From Escherichia phage JSE, in sequence record EU863408: DNA of 64,000 nt; one strand, 5' to 3'. Numbering within the stretch: position 1 is the stretch's first letter; each line of letters opens with the position of its first letter. Shown piece after piece: positions 4,708-45,778 of the stretch. Under the pieces are notes generated by a model. That model was not told the origin of the DNA. It searched no databases and saw nothing but the letters and a program-made list of their open reading frames with translations. The translations under genes and the position numbers were made by a program.

Positions 4708-5467
4708 CATTATTTGTTCAGGGTAGGTCGCTAATCTACCCCCGCCTTTCGGCTGCTACATGTCGCCATGCAGATCAGACTATATCTTCTATCTTTCGAT
4801 AGTCTACCATTTCGGATCGCTTGATCCTACGCCGCTACATTCATCACGGCTAGTCGTTAGGCATTTCATAGCGGAACTCATATTCATAAGTATTGGTTTT
4901 TCTACCATCAAGAATTGCAGATACATTTTTACGATGCAAGCCCAATGTTTCAGAAAGACTTCTCACGCTTTTAAATGTCTGCTCTTGTCCGGTTTCTTTA
5001 TGGATCGCAGTAACCTTATATGAACGACGTTTGAACTTATAGCACCCGTTTTCGTAACCTTCTTTCGTGTTTTCGCTGTTAGTCCCCCACTCAAGGTTAG
5101 ATGCATCGTTTATAGTTTTATCGTCGTTTTTATGTTTCACATATCGATAGCCGTTAGGATTCGGAATCCAACATTCAGCCACAATAACATGAACACGCAA
5201 ACATAAAGGTTTCTTGTCTCTCCTTACCCTTACTAATGTATATCCGGTATTGTTTTCTATCCAGGTACTCAACTGTTTACCTTTAGGAGAAAACACCCGT
5301 CCATCTTTCGATACCATATATTCGGTATCACGAATTTTTCTAAGTTCCATAATATATCCTCTTATACACATTGGCGTAAAGAGAATATGACCGCTATGTT
5401 TAGCACGGGATTGTCTTCTAGAGAGTTCCCCCGTTTAGGCAGATTTTAGATGAGCTGTTTAAAGTTT
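4708..5467 (-). mobile_element. Group I self-splicing intron (T4 td/nrdD-like core) in nrdD carrying an HNH endonuclease ORF
   Basis: 760 nt between NrdD halves; 5' segment AAUCUGCCUAAACGGGGGAACUCUCUAGAAGACAAUCCCGUGCUAAA and 3' segment with AGAUAUAGUCUG resemble T4 group I intron core; exon 1 ends in U, intron ends in G. Confidence 0.75.
4850..5350 (-). CDS. Intron-encoded HNH homing endonuclease (166 aa)
   Basis: HVIVAECWIPNPNGYRYVKHKNDDKTINDASNLEWGT HNH motif; ATG 5350 with AAGAGGA RBS; located inside intron. Confidence 0.8.
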   Translation of the reverse strand: MELRKIRDTEYMVSKDGRVFSPKGKQLSTWIENNTGYTLVRVRRDKKPLCLRVHVIVAECWIPNPNGYRYVKHKNDDKTINDASNLEWGTNSENTKEGYENGCYKFKRRSYKVTAIHKETGQEQTFKSVRSLSETLGLHRKNVSAILDGRKTNTYEYEFRYEMPND

Positions 5468-12952: not shown

Positions 12953-12981
12953 AGTATAGGGGATACGTGATCCCCTGTCAA
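12953..12981 (-). promoter_or_regulatory. Early promoter cassette TTGACA-17-TATACT with palindromic spacer GGGGATCACGTATCCCC
   Basis: Minus-strand read; leader ACACACATCAAAACGAAACACAC...GGAGAATCAAA-ATG. Confidence 0.6.
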
Positions 12982-12989
12982 CAAATTTT

Positions 12990-13319
12990 TTATGATTTTA
13001 GTGAATTAACCACTACATCAAAATGATGGACAGAGCACACCTTATTAAACACATACTCATCGTGTTTAGGAATAGCGCCTAACCGCTTTATTTCGCTCGC
13101 TGACACGATAAACCGTTTATCCGGTGCATTTACCTTACATGCTTCAACAACGCACGGGAAACGCGTTTCAGAGAGTTCTGGATAGTTTTCTGAATCCATC
13201 AGGACAATGAATACCCTGTTACATTGATTGTAGAATCCTGTTTTTGATTTCATCAAGTTTTCTTCTCTGTACAATTCGTGCAATCTTCCTTTCATGATTT
13301 CGTTGGTTCTTGTCTTCAC
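12990..13319 (-). CDS. Hypothetical protein (<=109 aa)
   Basis: ORF; 5' end overlaps upstream ORF so true start is probably internal. Confidence 0.35.
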   Translation of the reverse strand: MKTRTNEIMKGRLHELYREENLMKSKTGFYNQCNRVFIVLMDSENYPELSETRFPCVVEACKVNAPDKRFIVSASEIKRLGAIPKHDEYVFNKVCSVHHFDVVVNSLKS

Positions 13320-13560
13320 AGTTTACCCATTCAACAAGATCTTTACCCAACTCGAAAGCCCATTCTCGGTCTTGCTTTACGTTTTGTAGGTATGGACTTT
13401 CTGACACTCTACGAAGTGATGTTGTCGTAACAAGAATGATCCCAGGAATGGTCGGATGTTCCTTTCCATATACAATAGGACGCGAGTCACTATCAATACC
13501 TTGTAAGAAGGTGTATCCTGAATCACTTAGAATCATATACTTTTTCATTTCACACATCAC
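13219..13560 (-). CDS. Hypothetical protein (113 aa)
   Basis: ORF. Confidence 0.4.
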   Translation of the reverse strand: MMCEMKKYMILSDSGYTFLQGIDSDSRPIVYGKEHPTIPGIILVTTTSLRRVSESPYLQNVKQDREWAFELGKDLVEWVNCEDKNQRNHERKIARIVQRRKLDEIKNRILQSM

Positions 13561-13814
13561 AGTTTCCTCAACCAGTTATTAAAGCGAGCAAACCATGACG
13601 CTTTTCGTGCTTCTTTTACTTTATGTGCACGAAAACCACTGAAACACCATTCATAATCATCACCGAAACATGATTCAACAGGAACACCCGCATTTCGTAG
13701 TTCTCTGGTCTTTATCATAAATCCTTGACATAAGGGTCGACCTTCAACAATGATAGGAAGTTTAACTTTTTCCATGAAAGTATACCCAGCACGGTCAATA
13801 ATTTCAATTTTCAT
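13557..13814 (-). CDS. Hypothetical protein (85 aa)
   Basis: ORF, 4-nt overlap with neighbours. Confidence 0.4.
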   Translation of the reverse strand: MKIEIIDRAGYTFMEKVKLPIIVEGRPLCQGFMIKTRELRNAGVPVESCFGDDYEWCFSGFRAHKVKEARKASWFARFNNWLRKL

Positions 13815-14059
13815 TTTACATTATCTCCATAGATCTTTCCAGCAATATCAATTTCACCAGCGCGAACATCTAGGATAAGATGCGGTAGGTGTATGCAGTT
13901 TTCCCACCCCACTCGCTTCATTTCTGAAACCGTGACGTAAGCCCATCCGTTCGCTGTAATAAAGTCTACTTCAACCTTGAGAGGAAAGCAAGACTTTTCT
14001 ATGTCTTCAAATCCGATAATGTGTTTTGTCGTTGAATATGGAATATATCCGGTGATCAT
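13811..14059 (-). CDS. Hypothetical protein (82 aa)
   Basis: ORF, 4-nt overlap with neighbours. Confidence 0.4.
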   Translation of the reverse strand: MITGYIPYSTTKHIIGFEDIEKSCFPLKVEVDFITANGWAYVTVSEMKRVGWENCIHLPHLILDVRAGEIDIAGKIYGDNVK

Positions 14060-14517
14060 TTTGTGATCTCCTTATACTCAACACACCATAAGCAGGTAGC
14101 CCATGATAAACGCTCATAACGCTGGCAGAAATCGGACCATAGATATTGTGCACCGTTCGGCATAGTTGAAATATGCGTTTTCTCTCCAACTTTCACGAAA
14201 GAAGTATTCGATTTTGTGATCTCGACCGGAGTATATCCGAAAGCGGGTTCCAACTCAACATCTGAACTAAATGCCAATTTAACAGAATTTGTTTTTCTGA
14301 CCGCTGTCCGGTTTCCTTCTGGGTACAGCACAGCAGGTTTAGCGCCTAAGCGGATAAACTCAGTATTTTTAATGAACAGAATATCATGATAACCGTCATA
14401 TTCCGACACTTCCATAGTAACAGGAAAATCGACATGTGCTAAACCTGGTAGATCTCGCATATCATGAAAGGTCGCCATCAACTTTTTCATTCTATATTCC
14501 TCACTCTTCTGTTTCAT
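14056..14517 (-). CDS. Hypothetical protein (153 aa)
   Basis: ORF. Confidence 0.4.
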   Translation of the reverse strand: MKQKSEEYRMKKLMATFHDMRDLPGLAHVDFPVTMEVSEYDGYHDILFIKNTEFIRLGAKPAVLYPEGNRTAVRKTNSVKLAFSSDVELEPAFGYTPVEITKSNTSFVKVGEKTHISTMPNGAQYLWSDFCQRYERLSWATCLWCVEYKEITK

Positions 14518-14737
14518 TTCTTTTATATGGTACTATAACAGGATTAATACAGCAAGCACCAATTACGTTATGAGCACCACAAGTTAAACATTTATAGTCA
14601 TGGAACTTATTAAGGAATCGACCAAACTCATAACCGACTAGCGCCGCGTGTACTTGAGTCTCGATCTCATCCATATCAGCCAATGTTTTAACCTTCATAG
14701 TATAATCCTCAAATGGTAGTTTTGCGAAGATGGTCAT
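14501..14737 (-). CDS. Hypothetical small Cys-containing protein (78 aa)
   Basis: ORF; CLTCGAHNVIGACC segment. Confidence 0.4.
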   Translation of the reverse strand: MTIFAKLPFEDYTMKVKTLADMDEIETQVHAALVGYEFGRFLNKFHDYKCLTCGAHNVIGACCINPVIVPYKRNETEE

Positions 14738-14999
14738 TACATGCTTTTAATGCATCAGTCGCGGTGTCATAGCGAGTATTATCATAGCACCAGTAACCAT
14801 CTGTCAACTGATAAATCAATCCGTCCTTTTTAGCTTCGATGAAAGACAATTCTTTGAAAGTTTCTACTTTCTTTGCTGATACTCCACGGTCACGGCGTTT
14901 ATAGAGTTTAGCTAAAATGCGTTCAGCTTGTTCCTCTTTATTGCCAGACAGATCCCAGATGATGTTTCTTATATGCTTGATTAATTGTTCAGTGGTCAT
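14709..14999 (-). CDS. Hypothetical protein (96 aa)
   Basis: ATG 14999 after promoter and GGAGAATCAAAG leader. Confidence 0.45.
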   Translation of the reverse strand: MTTEQLIKHIRNIIWDLSGNKEEQAERILAKLYKRRDRGVSAKKVETFKELSFIEAKKDGLIYQLTDGYWCYDNTRYDTATDALKACNDHLRKTTI

Positions 15000-15028
15000 C
15001 TTTGATTCTCCTTAGTTGGTATGCGTGC

Positions 15029-15056
15029 ATTATAGCATTGTGATTATCTTTGTCAA
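15029..15056 (-). promoter_or_regulatory. Early promoter TTGACA-16-TATAAT
   Basis: Minus-strand read. Confidence 0.6.
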
Positions 15057-15061
15057 CACCC

Positions 15062-15092
15062 AAAAACAAAAAAGGCTATCCCGAAGGATAGC
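15062..15092 (-). terminator. Rho-independent terminator after the Gly-rich gene (GGCUAUCC-UUCG-GGAUAGCC + U run)
   Basis: 8 bp perfect stem, UUCG-type loop, UUUUUUGUUUUU tail. Confidence 0.7.
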
Positions 15093-15100
15093 CCATAAAA

Positions 15101-15877
15101 TTACACGCGAGCACCGTAGATCGTGCCTACTTTATCCCAGCGTGGAGCATTACCAGTAACGGCTTTACCAGCAGCACCACCGTTATATTCTGTACCGTTC
15201 CCCTGAGTATTACATCTTCCTCCAGCAGCACCAACGTTACCGCCCGCACCGCCTGTATATGCACTAAGAGACCCCTCACCAACAGATCCTTTACCAGGAG
15301 CGGAAATAGTACCAGCAGTTGCACCGGAACTCATATGAGAGGAAGACCCACCAGCACCGAATGGGCGACCACCGCCACCACCAAATACTAGTCGACCCCT
15401 GTTACCGCCGCCACCGCCGCCACCGCCGCCAGCGATAGCACCGTTATTTGTAATTCGTAGACGTGTACCGATAGCGTTATTGATTGCGTTTCCACCAGCA
15501 GCGCCAGCAGCGTTACTACCACCATTACCCCCACGTCCGTAGACAGTCACACCGGAGTTAATGATCAATGTTACATATTCGTTTGTTAACGAGCTAGGGA
15601 AGTCAAGACAAGGAACGCCAGTAGATTGGGAAACAATATCACCAGTGATAGTAATTACTACAGGAGTAGATCCTTGTGCTTTCATCCAGTTAATAAGAGT
15701 GTCTTTATTGTAAGAGTTACTAGCACCAATGCTATAATGAATCTCTTTAGAGCGTCCGACCATTGCCGACATATACGCCGGACGACCTAAGCGTACAGCT
15801 TCCATTGCGGCACTCATCCACCGTTGACCAGTCTCGGACACAGCAGATGATCCTACCCATCCAGAAGATATTGCCAT
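15101..15877 (-). CDS. Glycine-rich low-complexity protein (258 aa) of unknown function
   Basis: GAGGAAA RBS; N-terminal ~115 aa ordinary, then poly-Gly tracts (GGGGGGGGGN, GGGGGRPFGAGG); flanked by terminators. Confidence 0.5.
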   Translation of the reverse strand: MAISSGWVGSSAVSETGQRWMSAAMEAVRLGRPAYMSAMVGRSKEIHYSIGASNSYNKDTLINWMKAQGSTPVVITITGDIVSQSTGVPCLDFPSSLTNEYVTLIINSGVTVYGRGGNGGSNAAGAAGGNAINNAIGTRLRITNNGAIAGGGGGGGGGNRGRLVFGGGGGRPFGAGGSSSHMSSGATAGTISAPGKGSVGEGSLSAYTGGAGGNVGAAGGRCNTQGNGTEYNGGAAGKAVTGNAPRWDKVGTIYGARV

Positions 15878-15896
15878 AAAATTTCCTCACAAGAAA

Positions 15897-15913
15897 AGCC
15901 CCATTTAAGGGGC
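15897..15913 (-). terminator. Terminator hairpin GCCCC-UUAAAU-GGGGC followed by UUUUCUUG
   Basis: Seen on minus strand between 15932 gene and Gly-rich gene. Confidence 0.5.
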
Positions 15914-15931
15914 ATTGATTGATAATATTAC

Positions 15932-16153
15932 TTAGATGATCTCTGCTTCACCATCCAAGAAGAAAGACCATGTTTTGTTAGGATAGCGAAGCGCCCATGA
16001 TTCGGCAGTTTTAACACCAGTTTCGAACAATTGACGGCTGGTCACTTTAGCCATACCATCTTCGATGGCAACGTTTTCAATAATCATCGGGTACTTAGCG
16101 CCACGCATGAAACCGAAGCCAGCGGAAGATTTGATAATTTTAACAGTTGCCAT
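15932..16153 (-). CDS. Hypothetical protein (73 aa)
   Basis: ATG 16153 after conserved leader AGGAGAATCAAAA. Confidence 0.45.
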   Translation of the reverse strand: MATVKIIKSSAGFGFMRGAKYPMIIENVAIEDGMAKVTSRQLFETGVKTAESWALRYPNKTWSFFLDGEAEII

Positions 16154-16192
16154 TTTTGATTCTCCTAGAAAGTGTCGTGTTTCGATGGGTGT

Positions 16193-16221
16193 ATTATGCA
16201 ATAACACCGGATCGCTGTCAA
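16193..16221 (-). promoter_or_regulatory. Early promoter cassette TTGACA-17-CATAAT, -10 inside GGTGT/ACACC palindrome
   Basis: Minus-strand read. Confidence 0.6.
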
Positions 16222-16240
16222 CACTTTCTAAGAAAAATTT

Positions 16241-16525
16241 TTAAACTAATCGAATATAGCCCAGAATTTCAGCACCTTTAGCCAGTCCTAAAACTTCCCA
16301 TTCAAGGTCGCCGTAGTCATAATTTGCAACCATCAACTGACCATTTTTCATGCAGCAATCATGAGAGAAAATTTGCCCCGCATAAACTACGATAGTAATA
16401 AACTTTCCTGATTCTGGCGGTGTGGAAGACAAAGCGACCATATGACCATTCAGCTTAGTAACCAGTGATGGAACAATAAAATTCGGGCTTACCTTAATAC
16501 CGTTAAATTCGTTTGTGTCTTTCAT
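16241..16525 (-). CDS. Hypothetical protein (94 aa)
   Basis: ORF. Confidence 0.4.
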   Translation of the reverse strand: MKDTNEFNGIKVSPNFIVPSLVTKLNGHMVALSSTPPESGKFITIVVYAGQIFSHDCCMKNGQLMVANYDYGDLEWEVLGLAKGAEILGYIRLV

Positions 16526-16872
16526 GCCAGACCTCGCAAAACACTAATAGCATAATCATGCTGGTTATTCATAATATCAATTGCATTGTGATAACGAGCT
16601 AAACCATCAAGGATAAATTCTTGTTTATCCTGTTTCAGTTTGGTATCACGCGCAGCCATAAGAGCATCAAGAACAGGTCCAAAGTGATTATCTAATTCAT
16701 CTTCGGTTGCAATGTTTCCTATTGCCTCGTCTATCCGTGATTCTAATGCTTGCTTTTCGTTGATCACTTGCTGGGTATATTCCAACACATCAAGAATATC
16801 GCGGGTAACGTCGCCATGATAAGGTATTCCCGCATGAAGATGATCAATTAGTCGTTGAATGTCAATGTTCAT
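16522..16872 (-). CDS. Hypothetical protein (116 aa)
   Basis: ORF with 4-nt overlaps. Confidence 0.4.
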   Translation of the reverse strand: MNIDIQRLIDHLHAGIPYHGDVTRDILDVLEYTQQVINEKQALESRIDEAIGNIATEDELDNHFGPVLDALMAARDTKLKQDKQEFILDGLARYHNAIDIMNNQHDYAISVLRGLA

Positions 16873-17207
16873 TTGTAACCCTCCTCTGAAAGCACATCCC
16901 AGATCGTTGAGTCAAGGTGCATTAAATTCCACATAATAGAGTCATAACTACCGAAGCCAGAAGTAAAAATTACATCACACTGGCGATATGTCTTATGAAA
17001 ATCGGTGGCTGTCTCTGCATCAATAGGCATATCGTCACCTGAAAGCACCAGACATTTAAGAATCATAACTCTGTTAGCCGTTGGCGCTTGCTTAGTCTTT
17101 TCAGCATATTTTTCGATGATCCGTTTTGCCTTTTCTTCTTTGATACGTCCAGACCAAATCCGGTTTCGGTATTGATTCATAATAATTTCAATCACATCAT
17201 TTTGCAT
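16869..17207 (-). CDS. Hypothetical protein (112 aa)
   Basis: ORF. Confidence 0.4.
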   Translation of the reverse strand: MQNDVIEIIMNQYRNRIWSGRIKEEKAKRIIEKYAEKTKQAPTANRVMILKCLVLSGDDMPIDAETATDFHKTYRQCDVIFTSGFGSYDSIMWNLMHLDSTIWDVLSEEGYK

Positions 17208-18432: not shown

Positions 18433-18472
18433 CCCCAGATTGAAAATATTCAGTTATATTTATAATCTGGGG
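18433..18472 (-). promoter_or_regulatory. Hairpin (9 bp stem CCCCAGAUU/AAUCUGGGG) whose loop contains T4 late promoter consensus TATAAATA
   Basis: Minus-strand TATAAATA at 18457..18464, ~35 nt upstream of ATG 18423. Confidence 0.5.
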
Positions 18473-18491
18473 CTTTATTTATGATTAACTC

Positions 18492-19088
18492 TTATTTGGT
18501 AGTACCGTCAATAAAATGTTTACGACACACAGAAACATATTTATCCTCTGCACCAACTTCTATTTGAGCACCATCGCGAATAACATTACCCTCTTTATCT
18601 ACACGAAGGACCATTGTTGCTTTCTTGCCACAATGACAAATACCCTTCATTTCGACCAGTTTATCAGCAAATGCCATTAATGCCGCAGATCCTTCAAATA
18701 GATTGCCCTGAAAGTCAGTGCGAAGGCCATAGCACAGTACAGGGATATTAGCATCATCAACAAGCGCACACAAGCCTAAAACATGCTCTTTAGTCATAAA
18801 TTGGGCTTCATCTACAAATACAGCATCAGGACGCCAGCGATCCGGTCTACGCTTACCTAACGATTCACGATAAACCAAATCGAAAAGATCATCCGATTTA
18901 GTGAAGGTGATCGCTGGGGCACTTAGGCCAATTCGGGAAACGACTTCACTTTCTGAATCTCGATTATCAATCGCTGGCTTAAGAATTAATACTCGCATAT
19001 CACGTTCTGTATAGTTATAAGCACTTTGTAACAGAGAAGTTGATTTGCCAGCGTTCATAGATGCATAGTAGAAATATAATTGCGCCAT
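18492..19088 (-). CDS. tk: Thymidine kinase
   Basis: P-loop MNAGKST, C-terminal CHCGKKA...CRKHF zinc motif; 198 aa as in T4 Tk. Confidence 0.9.
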   Translation of the reverse strand: MAQLYFYYASMNAGKSTSLLQSAYNYTERDMRVLILKPAIDNRDSESEVVSRIGLSAPAITFTKSDDLFDLVYRESLGKRRPDRWRPDAVFVDEAQFMTKEHVLGLCALVDDANIPVLCYGLRTDFQGNLFEGSAALMAFADKLVEMKGICHCGKKATMVLRVDKEGNVIRDGAQIEVGAEDKYVSVCRKHFIDGTTK

Positions 19089-20610: not shown

Positions 20611-21201
20611 TCAATAGCGTTTAGTCTTAAGAATGCCTTTACTCTTTAGATGGTTAGCCTTTTTTAGTACATCATCAGCATAACCTAACCCGGCTTTATA
20701 GTTCCATCCAGCATTGTAAGAAGCTAGCGCGAGTCGGATATTACCGTTTCGAACATCCAGCCAGTATGCTAACTCATCCATCGCGTAGAATGCAGAAACC
20801 TCGCGATTCATGATAAAGTTGATAGTCTGGCGATCACTCATTTTAACACCGCGCTTTGCATTTTTCGCTTTCACCGTTTTAAGGTAATTTTGAAATAATC
20901 CATAAGCATGATGATTTTTCTTTGGTGCTAAGTTTGCACCCGCGCTTGATTCTTGCCATGCGATACCCGCCAGGATGTGACCTAAACCCTTTCCGTTATA
21001 GCGAATATTCGGATGGTCCTTTTTCAACTTACCGCTTTTCTCGAATTGCTCGCCGTATTGATAGGCGAAATGTAAATTATCTAGTTGGTGTGCTGTAAAG
21101 TTGTCTATCGGCGCTTTTTTGATCGGTGCGCTAGTCGATGCGTGTGTAGCACCAACGGCTAGTGACAGACTCAATACTATCGCTTTTAGAACTTTTAACA
21201 T
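20611..21201 (-). CDS. Secreted lytic transglycosylase (SLT domain) with signal peptide
   Basis: Signal peptide; GIAWQESS...YGLFQ...ASYNAG motifs typical of SLT family. Confidence 0.7.
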   Translation of the reverse strand: MLKVLKAIVLSLSLAVGATHASTSAPIKKAPIDNFTAHQLDNLHFAYQYGEQFEKSGKLKKDHPNIRYNGKGLGHILAGIAWQESSAGANLAPKKNHHAYGLFQNYLKTVKAKNAKRGVKMSDRQTINFIMNREVSAFYAMDELAYWLDVRNGNIRLALASYNAGWNYKAGLGYADDVLKKANHLKSKGILKTKRY

Positions 21202-29068: not shown

Positions 29069-29097
29069 ATTGTAGGGGAGTTATCCTCCCCTGTCAA
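29069..29097 (-). promoter_or_regulatory. Early promoter cassette TTGACA-17-TACAAT with palindromic spacer GGGGAGGATAACTCCCC
   Basis: Minus-strand read. Confidence 0.6.
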
Positions 29098-44680: not shown

Positions 44681-45668
44681 TGAAAATAGTGTGATCTATC
44701 GCTCAATCATTACTAGCAAATTCAGAACAGAAAAACTTCTGAACTTCTATAATTCTGTAGGCGATGGAGCAAATCAAATTACAATTTATGGAACGTTTGG
44801 ACGTTCGGAGCCGTGGTCAGAAAACGAAAAAGAGGTGGGCTTTGCCCCACCTTATCCGACCGATTCAACGGCTGGTGTTGTTGACATGTGGACCCATATG
44901 ATGGGGGCGGTTAAGATTAACAAATCACTTCTTGATGCGGTTATCCCTCGTAAAGATTGGGGTGATACCGGACAGGATAACCCGCGCACATTCTTTATCA
45001 ATGACATTGTTGTTGTCAACTCAGCACCATATAACCGAACTGATGTTGGTAGCGGCTGGATGGTGTATCGCGTAACCGATGTTCCTGAACGCGGTTACTG
45101 CTCGATTTCAAGCATTGACGCTAAAGTAGAGTGTTTGAAGTTGGGCGGAAAGTGGACCCCCACTCATGAATCAATTGCGCCACCTGTAGGAAAGGGCGAT
45201 TCTATTGATATGGGTGATGGGTATCGTTGGGAATATCTGTACACAATTCCACCTGATGCGGCGATCAACCGTTGCACCAATGAACATATTGTTGTACCGT
45301 TCCCCGATGAACTGCGACAAGATCCGGCGCGTTGGGGCTATGACAATGTGATCACATGGTATAATGACTATAATCTTCTTTATCGGCTGAAAGTAGTAAC
45401 TTTGCGTTTTCAGGCTTATATGGACTCTGCGCAATTCCCAACTACCGCGTTAGTGGGTAATACTGGTTTCCGTCAGTTAAGCATTATCCTTAACCCATTG
45501 GAAAAGAAAGCACGCCCTAGCGATCCAGACGTTAAAGCGGTCAAAGATAAGTACCGACCGCAAGACTTAGAGCCACACTCAGGCGAAATGATCTACATGG
45601 AAAACCGACAACCTATCGTTCGGTCATTAGATCAAACAGAACTTGTTTCTGTATTGTTTGAGTTCTAA
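44673..45668 (+). CDS. 8: Baseplate wedge protein gp8
   Basis: 331 aa; synteny and size (T4 gp8 334 aa). Confidence 0.85.
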   Translation: MANENSVIYRSIITSKFRTEKLLNFYNSVGDGANQITIYGTFGRSEPWSENEKEVGFAPPYPTDSTAGVVDMWTHMMGAVKINKSLLDAVIPRKDWGDTGQDNPRTFFINDIVVVNSAPYNRTDVGSGWMVYRVTDVPERGYCSISSIDAKVECLKLGGKWTPTHESIAPPVGKGDSIDMGDGYRWEYLYTIPPDAAINRCTNEHIVVPFPDELRQDPARWGYDNVITWYNDYNLLYRLKVVTLRFQAYMDSAQFPTTALVGNTGFRQLSIILNPLEKKARPSDPDVKAVKDKYRPQDLEPHSGEMIYMENRQPIVRSLDQTELVSVLFEF

Positions 45669-45683
45669 GTGTATGATTTTAAA

Positions 45684-45715
45684 AGCCAATTCGAGAGAGT
45701 TGGCTTTTTCCATTT
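45684..45715 (+). terminator. Rho-independent terminator after gene 8 (9 bp stem, GAGA loop, U run)
   Basis: AGCCAAUUC-GAGA-GAGUUGGCU followed by UUUUUCCAUUUUU. Confidence 0.7.
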
Positions 45716-45721
45716 TTGGTG

Positions 45722-45749
45722 TTGACAATCTTATTTGGTAAGGTATAAT
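45722..45749 (+). promoter_or_regulatory. Sigma70-like early promoter TTGACA-16-TATAAT on plus strand inside the late baseplate cluster
   Basis: Consensus hexamers; followed by ACGGAGGATAAATT-ATG. Confidence 0.7.
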
Positions 45750-45778
45750 ACACACATCTAAACAACGGAGGATAAATT

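Follow-up and report, generated by a model that had tools for sequence, protein, structure and literature searches.

The glycine-rich open reading frame (ORF) described here is almost certainly gene 38 (g38) of an RB49-like T4-type myovirus (Krischvirus), and its product, gp38, the adhesin by which the long tail fibre (LTF) recognises its receptor. It begins with ATG and encodes 258 amino acids plus a stop on the minus strand of the window, by which we mean the whole 64,000-nucleotide stretch of Escherichia phage JSE DNA that was analysed (EU863408; Table 1). The predicted protein is 100% identical to the JSE gp38 entry and 97% identical to the gp38 of both RB49 and Phi1, and the surrounding 3 kb is 97–98% identical to Krischvirus genomes whose annotations call the gene gene 38, adhesin or receptor-recognising protein. 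Both the gene and its atypical position have been described before, and recognising gp38 here gives the window its correct annotation.

Table 1 Features of the g38 region, with positions in the window
Feature	Position	Strand	Basis
Gene 38, gp38 long-tail-fibre tip adhesin	15101..15877	-	Pfam, PHROG, PDB 6F45_D, JSE/RB49/Phi1 identity
N-terminal half (aa 1–115), putative gp37-attachment domain plus linker/base of receptor-binding domain	15533..15877	-	Gp38_N, S16 alignment
C-terminal half (aa 116–258), predicted polyglycine-II sandwich receptor-binding domain	15104..15532	-	Alignment, AF2, Foldseek
(ACCGCCGCC)x3.1 tandem repeat, coding for the G9 run in the central glycine-rich motif	15404..15431	-	Tandem Repeats Finder, 100% matches
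Shine-Dalgarno GAGG, 7 nt 5' of ATG	15885..15888	-	Sequence read directly
Upstream hairpin GCCCC-TTAAAT-GGGGC (5 G-C pairs, 6-nt loop) then TTTTCTT; stem 15913-15898	15888..15913	-	Terminator scan
Downstream putative intrinsic terminator, 9-bp stem, 4-nt UUCG-type loop, T6GT5; stem 15094-15073	15063..15094	-	Terminator scan
Consensus sigma70 early promoter TTGACA-16-TATAAT, TG-extended, 12/12	15029..15056	-	Promoter scan
Closest promoter upstream of g38 on its own strand, sigma70 early type, 11/12	16193..16221	-	Promoter scans
Closest exact match to the T4-type late promoter motif, TATAAATA	18457..18464	-	Motif search

Identity and fold of gp38

That g38 is a real gene and not a chance ORF follows from overwhelming homology. 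Two Pfam families cover the full length of the protein: Gp38_N (PF21721) matched aa 1–40 (6.3e-18, 64.9 bits against a cut-off of 25, profile positions 1–40 of 40) and GP38 (PF05268) matched aa 45–258 (1.4e-72, 244.5 bits against a cut-off of 25, profile positions 1–218 of 218). PHROG 2056, labelled 'tail fiber protein; host specificity', was matched at 1.5e-98. Among PDB sequences, phmmer returned S16 gp38 (6F45_D) at 6.7e-51 over residues 1–256 and the receptor-binding domain of PP01 gp38 (9v85) at 8.3e-36. The alignment with S16 gp38 (PDB 6F45 chain D) is full-length at 42% identity and spans the same attachment domain and polyglycine-II sandwich.

Structure prediction led to the same proteins. 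An AlphaFold2 (AF2) model built with 36 homologues reached a pLDDT of 93 and a pTM of 0.84, with confidence in the C-terminal half of 89–98 per 10-residue block (88 over the last eight residues), and it superposes on S16 gp38 (Foldseek match to 6f45_D, E 6.9e-22, TM 0.82/0.85, rmsd 2.7 Å) and on 9v85_C (E 2e-20, TMt 0.88); the next match, to a structure other than gp38, came at E 3.7. The predicted fold has two domains, an N-terminal attachment domain followed by a polyglycine-II sandwich. A preliminary description of this DNA had reported the 258-amino-acid ORF and its long glycine-rich tracts, both of which are present. It had considered the protein impossible to place in any family, which the full-length Pfam matches and the solved gp38 structures contradict: the match is to a known T4-type structural protein. 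Its guess of a structural, fibre-like product was broadly right, the protein being an adhesin at the tip of the LTF.

The part of the protein previously called ordinary, aa 1–115, aligns with residues 1 to ~115 of S16 gp38, and its nucleotide conservation among Krischvirus phages is 93–98%. Its first ~44 amino acids, the gp37-docking part, are the portion that diverges from the Tequatrovirus homologue. Glycine accounts for 23% of all residues in gp38 and for 34% of residues 116–258, where alanine makes up a further 15%. The glycine tracts noted earlier lie, among other places, at 114–117 (GRGG), 128–129 (GG), 150–156 (a G run), 166–174 (GGGGGRPFG) and 212–213 (GG). Across the 36 homologues, the invariant glycine-containing columns include G114 R115 G116 G117, G128 G129 and G152 G153 G155, followed by G167 G169 G170 P172 G174, G210 G212 G213 and G234 G237; between them are poorly conserved stretches with indels, differing in both sequence and length.

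Trojet et al. 2011 (PMC3157838) reported this alternation of glycine-rich motifs and hypervariable segments, which was re-confirmed on 54 adhesins (bioRxiv 10.64898/2026.04.02.716166), and the gp38 of T2/T6/PP01-type Tequatrovirus (e.g. 236Ecol005PP; 9v85), a member of the same family, has the same architecture. In the S16 structure, as summarised in PMC9569957, the glycine motifs form the polyglycine-II sandwich, and the receptor-binding face is made up of the intervening loops. The invariance of the glycine columns, taken with the sandwich in S16, argues that the tracts are, as modelled, a folded scaffold rather than disordered low-complexity sequence.

Flanking stem-loops and the transcription of g38

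The preliminary description had placed the ORF between two hairpins, and terminator-like sites do flank it on its own strand, both satisfying the sequence pattern of a Rho-independent terminator (a G+C-rich hairpin plus a T-tract). Folding predictions make the upstream hairpin a weak one and the downstream hairpin a strong one. The former, which sits between the stop of a 73-aa ORF and the g38 ribosome-binding site, has a 5-bp stem with a centroid of about −10 kcal/mol (MFE −11.5, z −1.7), and 12 of 200 shuffled sequences folded equally well; it is nearly invariant in six Krischvirus genomes. The latter folds at −15.3 kcal/mol (z −4.6), with none of 200 shuffles as stable. The good ribosome-binding site claimed for the ORF is also there, in the form of GAGG at the expected place before the ATG (Table 1), and leader motif counts show that g38 is without the GGAG-containing leader AGGAGAATCAAA of the early genes around it. 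GGAG is the motif at which RegB cleaves in T4. A Shine-Dalgarno sequence without GGAG would fit an expression class different from that of the neighbours.

A hyperplastic early region takes up the first ~31 kb of the window. It contains 14 sigma70 consensus promoters (≤1 mismatch), all on the minus strand, compared with 0.9 expected, and 11 copies of the leader AGGAGAATCAAA. Promoter-early stem-loop (PeSL) cassettes were described in RB49 and Phi1 by Arbiol et al. 2010 (PMC2839356), who proposed a role for them in insulating transcription units and in modular shuffling. The region has many cassettes of this kind. Downstream of g38, the stem-loop at 15094–15073, the promoter at 15056–15029 and AGGAGAATCAAA at 15012–15001 together fit the PeSL pattern of a strong sigma70-like promoter plus a stable stem-loop between genes, ahead of a Shine-Dalgarno sequence and gene start, their activity being predicted; the promoter serves the next gene downstream (14709–14999), not g38. 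The element upstream of g38 differs from the published cassettes (PMC2839356) in consisting of a stem-loop only, with no promoter scoring at least 9/12 in the 54-nt gap and no leader, so that the earlier statement that the ORF lacks the neighbours' promoter cassette holds for this gap. JSE, RB49 and Phi1 carry gp38 at the same locus, with the same small ORFs around it, the same flanking hairpins and the same downstream early promoter. Pfam found no significant family for the 73-aa and 96-aa neighbour ORFs or for Phi1 ORF252, and tRNA and Rfam scans over the whole window gave no matches.

The closest promoter upstream of g38 on its own strand (Table 1) drives the 73-aa ORF at 15932–16153, a gene that has the AGGAGAATCAAA leader in common with the gene downstream of g38. 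The nearest exact late motif, TATAAATA, is ~2.6 kb upstream of g38 in front of rI and equals the RB49 site 'Pl:48756'; its counterpart is the only late promoter predicted in this part of RB49 (Nolan et al. 2006, supplement). A motif search of the g38 strand found no exact TATAAATA within 2.5 kb upstream of g38 and none with one mismatch on the minus strand over 15878–16565; the nearest one-mismatch late motif upstream, TATGAATA at 16566–16573, falls within an ORF. The motif is not enriched in the window (5 found versus 6.5 expected). The RB49 promoter tables list no site at g38 (Nolan 2006), neither Arbiol 2010 nor Comeau 2014 deals with g38 at this locus, and a literature search found no Krischvirus RNA-seq paper.

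We propose that some transcripts reach g38 by reading through the weak upstream hairpin, which would act as a leaky terminator or attenuator. Transcripts would originate at the early promoter at 16221–16193 and possibly also at the late promoter near 18460; attenuated read-through would supply the low dose required (about 6 copies per virion), and the strong downstream hairpin, a putative terminator, would keep transcription out of the next cassette. The canonical Tequatrovirus g37-g38 operon offers a parallel, since it too has a hairpin just upstream of the g38 Shine-Dalgarno sequence, between g37 and g38 and of comparable stability (−13.4 kcal/mol). A stem-loop in this place is thus no peculiarity of the displaced locus, and the one in Tequatrovirus must be read through, though there g37-g38-t lie within the late tail-fibre operon, whereas here g38 occupies the hyperplastic early region on the early-gene strand. 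The difference in strength between the two flanking hairpins, together with read-through of the Tequatrovirus hairpin, favours attenuated read-through; against it, termination at the upstream hairpin and its T-tract may be efficient.

We consider it rather unlikely, but worth weighing, that g38 has a promoter of its own, either a divergent late or a weak sigma70 promoter in the 54-nt gap or the 73-aa ORF, in which case the hairpin would stabilise the 5' end of the mRNA and would not be an attenuator. The gap is almost invariant in six Krischvirus genomes though the adjacent C-terminal half of g38 varies widely, but it is no more conserved than the flanking ORF. It contains −10-like hexamers (TATTAT/TAATAT), and its invariant stretch TAAGTAATATTATCAATCAATG includes GTGAAG-18-TATTAT, which by inspection scores 8/12; this is below the scan threshold, and the sigma70 scan of the gap was empty at 9/12 or above. 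In favour of a divergent late promoter, the late motif in RB49 has a poorly conserved first T (Nolan 2006), yet even one-mismatch copies of TATAAATA are missing from 15878–16565 on the minus strand, and the HMM-based RB49 prediction put no late promoter in the gap. This alternative concerns expression; the identity of the protein is undisputed under either account. The question left is a narrow one for T4 transcription specialists, that of a virion gene in the early region, behind a hairpin and without a late promoter. If early read-through is the true source of g38 transcripts, the gene would be a small exception to the dependence of T4-type structural genes on gp55 late promoters.

Displacement and probable exchange of g38

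In S16, g38 presumably lies directly after g37, whereas here it is displaced from g37 by tens of kb. The arrangement can be read in Phi1, where a 79-aa ORF and then t (the holin gene) come after g37 (151643–154585), and g38 is at 44989–45765 on the strand opposite to g37. The usual g37-g38-t synteny, absent from Phi1, is typical of the family and not defining for the protein. The distance between g38, within the hyperplastic early region, and g37 is ~55–106 kb. Displacement in RB49 was first reported by Desplats 2002 (as cited in PMC3157838), and in RB49/Krischvirus it appears in PMC3157838 (2011); a 2026 preprint places g38 'approximately 55 kb downstream of gp37' genus-wide and suggests displacement or independent acquisition (bioRxiv 10.64898/2026.04.02.716166).

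Sequence comparison between and within genera suggests that g38 has also moved between phages. Its product is 86% identical in amino acids to the gp38 of Tequatrovirus 236Ecol005PP (81% in nucleotides, over the CDS only), compared with 48% identity between the holins of the same Tequatrovirus and Phi1 and a patchy 31–46% between their gp37 proteins. Throughout Krischvirus, the flanks and the N-terminal half of g38 are 93–100% identical. Relative to GEC-3S, E26, JK32 and MIZ3, nucleotide identity drops to 68–76% in the C-terminal half, while the flanks are 93–99% identical; such C-terminal mosaicism within the genus is the familiar swapping of specificity segments. Because g38 is displaced from g37, is far more similar to its Tequatrovirus counterpart than are the holin and gp37, and is mosaic within the genus, these comparisons support its mobility by horizontal exchange.

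The preliminary description had likewise suggested horizontal acquisition, a suggestion that gains from displacement, cross-genus similarity and mosaicism but loses its argument from base composition. The locally raised GC that it reported is real, at 0.54–0.56 over the glycine-rich half (300-nt windows) against about 0.38–0.42 around it and ~0.40 for the window. The excess is found solely at codon positions 1 and 2 (0.56 and 0.62), and GC3 is not above that of the neighbours (0.33 in g38, 0.36 in eleven neighbouring genes), so the bump is an amino-acid composition effect of Gly and Ala codons, without a foreign-DNA signature. Codons other than those for Gly and Ala have a GC of 0.38 (neighbours 0.35), and Gly codon choice is GGT-dominant, the same as in the neighbours. 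A foreign origin argued from GC is ruled out by this agreement in GC3 and Gly codon choice.

A search for an empty site found the upstream 73-aa ORF only in 56 Krischvirus records (95–99% identity) and yielded no genome without g38 there from which insertion boundaries could be drawn. A 10-nt direct repeat, AATTTTATGG, occurs at both ends of the g38 CDS. One could assemble a fuller scenario in which the hairpin-bounded g38 is a mobile host-range cassette that moved into the early region by stem-loop/PeSL recombination or a mini-circle route, with exchange between T-even genera ongoing, AATTTTATGG as the junction footprint and dose set by attenuated early read-through. A mini-circle/PeSL route of recombination has been described for ORFans in RB49 and Phi1 (PMC2839356), but as a whole we regard this scenario as unlikely. 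If true, it would make g38 a virion gene under non-late control.

Receptor recognition and the gp37 partner

The mechanism proposed for gp38 is taken from the S16 structure and RB49 genetics and carried over by homology. One gp38 monomer would cap each LTF, its N-terminal domain docked on the tip of the gp37 trimer once the C-terminal intramolecular chaperone of gp37 has been shed (PMC9569957). The C-terminal half would fold from its conserved glycine-rich motifs into a sandwich of polyglycine-II helices, leaving the hypervariable loops as the distal surface that would bind the host receptor and set host range. The structural template is the S16 gp37-gp38 tip complex, 6F45 (Dunne et al. 2018, as cited in PMC9569957). 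We looked at gp37 in the congener Phi1, g37 being beyond the window: this 980-aa protein carries a Peptidase_S74 domain (PF13884, aa 872–931, E 1.2e-11), which is consistent with a partner of the self-cleaving type and would fit the docking route. The short gp37 fragment in 6F45 was not matched by Phi1 gp37 in a phmmer search of PDB sequences.

S16 binds OmpC. The hypervariable loops of its gp38 differ from those here, and receptor specificity is therefore expected to differ. A closer guide is RB49, whose gp38 is the LTF receptor-binding protein, with the substitutions E230K and Y231S altering host range (PMC9569957). Genetic work showed that RB49 gp38 recognises certain O-antigens as well as OmpA on rough strains (PMC9569957), and genome-wide screens likewise assign RB49 to OmpA (bioRxiv 10.64898/2026.04.02.716166). 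Both E230 and Y231 are kept in JSE gp38, and the few differences between the RB49 protein and this one (among them S4K, S5A, E27Q, D80N, H179N, S181G and T189S) fall outside these published host-range positions and make no difference of substance. We infer from the RB49-type alleles that the JSE allele probably recognises OmpA on rough strains and certain O-antigens, with the proviso that receptor specificity can shift with single substitutions (bioRxiv 10.64898/2026.04.02.716166).

The product name 'distal long tail fiber assembly catalyst' in AY343333 (RB49), HE978309 (GEC-3S) and the JSE protein entry would instead make gp38 a T4-style tail-fibre assembly chaperone that stays outside the virion and binds no receptor. 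We regard this as highly improbable: the protein matches over its whole length the T2/S16-type adhesin crystallised bound to the gp37 tip (6F45), the RB49 host-range mutations fall in gp38 at E230/Y231, porin specificity has been redirected by gp38 swaps (bioRxiv 10.64898/2026.04.02.716166), and Krischvirus gp37 carries an intramolecular chaperone domain of its own. The 'assembly catalyst' label is a legacy of T4 nomenclature. The bacteriocin-like protein that had been offered as an option for this ORF, or more broadly a glycine-rich bacteriocin/microcin-like or generic low-complexity protein that came from a higher-GC donor and has no link with the virion, has next to nothing left in its favour beyond high glycine content and a local GC of 0.55, being refuted by the full-length Pfam GP38/Gp38_N membership, the 6F45_D and Foldseek matches to solved gp38 structures, and a codon composition (GC3 at or below the neighbours, the same GGT-dominant glycine codons) that agrees with its surroundings, while the glycines occupy invariant columns in a folded domain modelled at pLDDT >90 and Pfam at E≤0.1 gave no bacteriocin family.

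In most T-even-like phages gp38 is the main determinant of host range, and it is a prime target for therapeutic phage engineering.

Boundaries and glycine-rich coding region of g38

The coding sequence of g38, the gene for the glycine-rich long-tail-fibre tip adhesin gp38, is bracketed exactly by the two copies of a 10-nt direct repeat, AATTTTATGG, which overlap its start and stop codons (see table). When the two 80-nt windows spanning the g38 junctions were shuffled, a shared 10-mer arose in just 47 of 5000 shuffles. In RB49, the copy at the g38 start codon reads AACTTTATGG (9/10). The repeat could be a chance occurrence or a recombination footprint. Within the gene, the nine-glycine run of gp38 is encoded by a perfect tandem repeat, (ACCGCCGCC)x3.1, also annotated in the TB34 record, which could act as a slippage hotspot that changes the length of one glycine-rich motif.

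Features of the g38 region and of related tail-fibre loci (JSE window positions unless another phage is named)
Feature	Position	Strand	Remarks
Paralogous ORF pair	13557-13814 and 15932-16153	minus	weak, E 5e-5
Paralogous ORF pair	12990-13319 and 14056-14517	minus	weak, E 1e-4
Paralogous ORF pair	14709-14999 and 16869-17207	minus	weak, E 3e-4
Direct repeat AATTTTATGG, 10 nt	15874-15883 and 15093-15102	minus	overlaps g38 start codon and stop codon
Tandem repeat (ACCGCCGCC)x3.1	15404-15431		nine-glycine run
Late-promoter-like TATAAATA	18457-18464	minus	5' of rI
Late-promoter-like CATAAATA	18476-18483	minus	5' of rI
Late-promoter-like GATAAATA	18538-18545	minus	5' of rI
ORF252, 79 aa	Phi1 stretch, 20628-20867		between g37 and holin gene t
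UUCG hairpin, 7 bp, GC-rich	Tequatrovirus 236Ecol005PP, ~4790-4815	minus	-13.4 kcal/mol, z -2.6

Comparison with other tail-fibre loci

In the canonical tail-fibre operon of 236Ecol005PP, a hairpin lies between the g37 stop codon and the g38 Shine-Dalgarno sequence, so that a stem-loop just 5' of g38 seems to be common to displaced and non-displaced loci. In Phi1, the g37-t slot, the usual place of g38, is filled by ORF252; this ORF had no Pfam match, and fibre chaperone and remnant are candidate roles for it.

Transcription signals and small ORFs around g38

Scans of the 64-kb window for tRNA genes and Rfam families gave no hits. Its closest DNA match in the phage collection was phage ELT3, at only 97.8%, although gp38 itself shows 100% identity to the JSE protein. 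Consensus sigma70 promoters (TTGACA-17-TATAAT, ≤1 mismatch) numbered 14, against an expectation of 0.9, and the leader AGGAGAATCAAA occurred 11 times, against an expectation of 0.6; every copy of both lies on the minus strand, between 1884 and 31359. In several of these promoters, among them those at 12953-12981 and 29069-29097, the spacer that separates -35 from -10 contains a G/C-rich palindrome, and the promoter and leader elements look like the promoter-early stem-loop (PeSL) cassettes of RB49 and Phi1 (Arbiol 2010, PMC2839356). The cluster of late-promoter-like motifs at 18457-18545 is the sole late-type signal on the minus strand for several kb around g38.

The small early ORFs flanking g38 (12990-17207, minus strand) form weakly paralogous pairs, which suggests that ORFan families have diversified in tandem here, with g38 located between their members.
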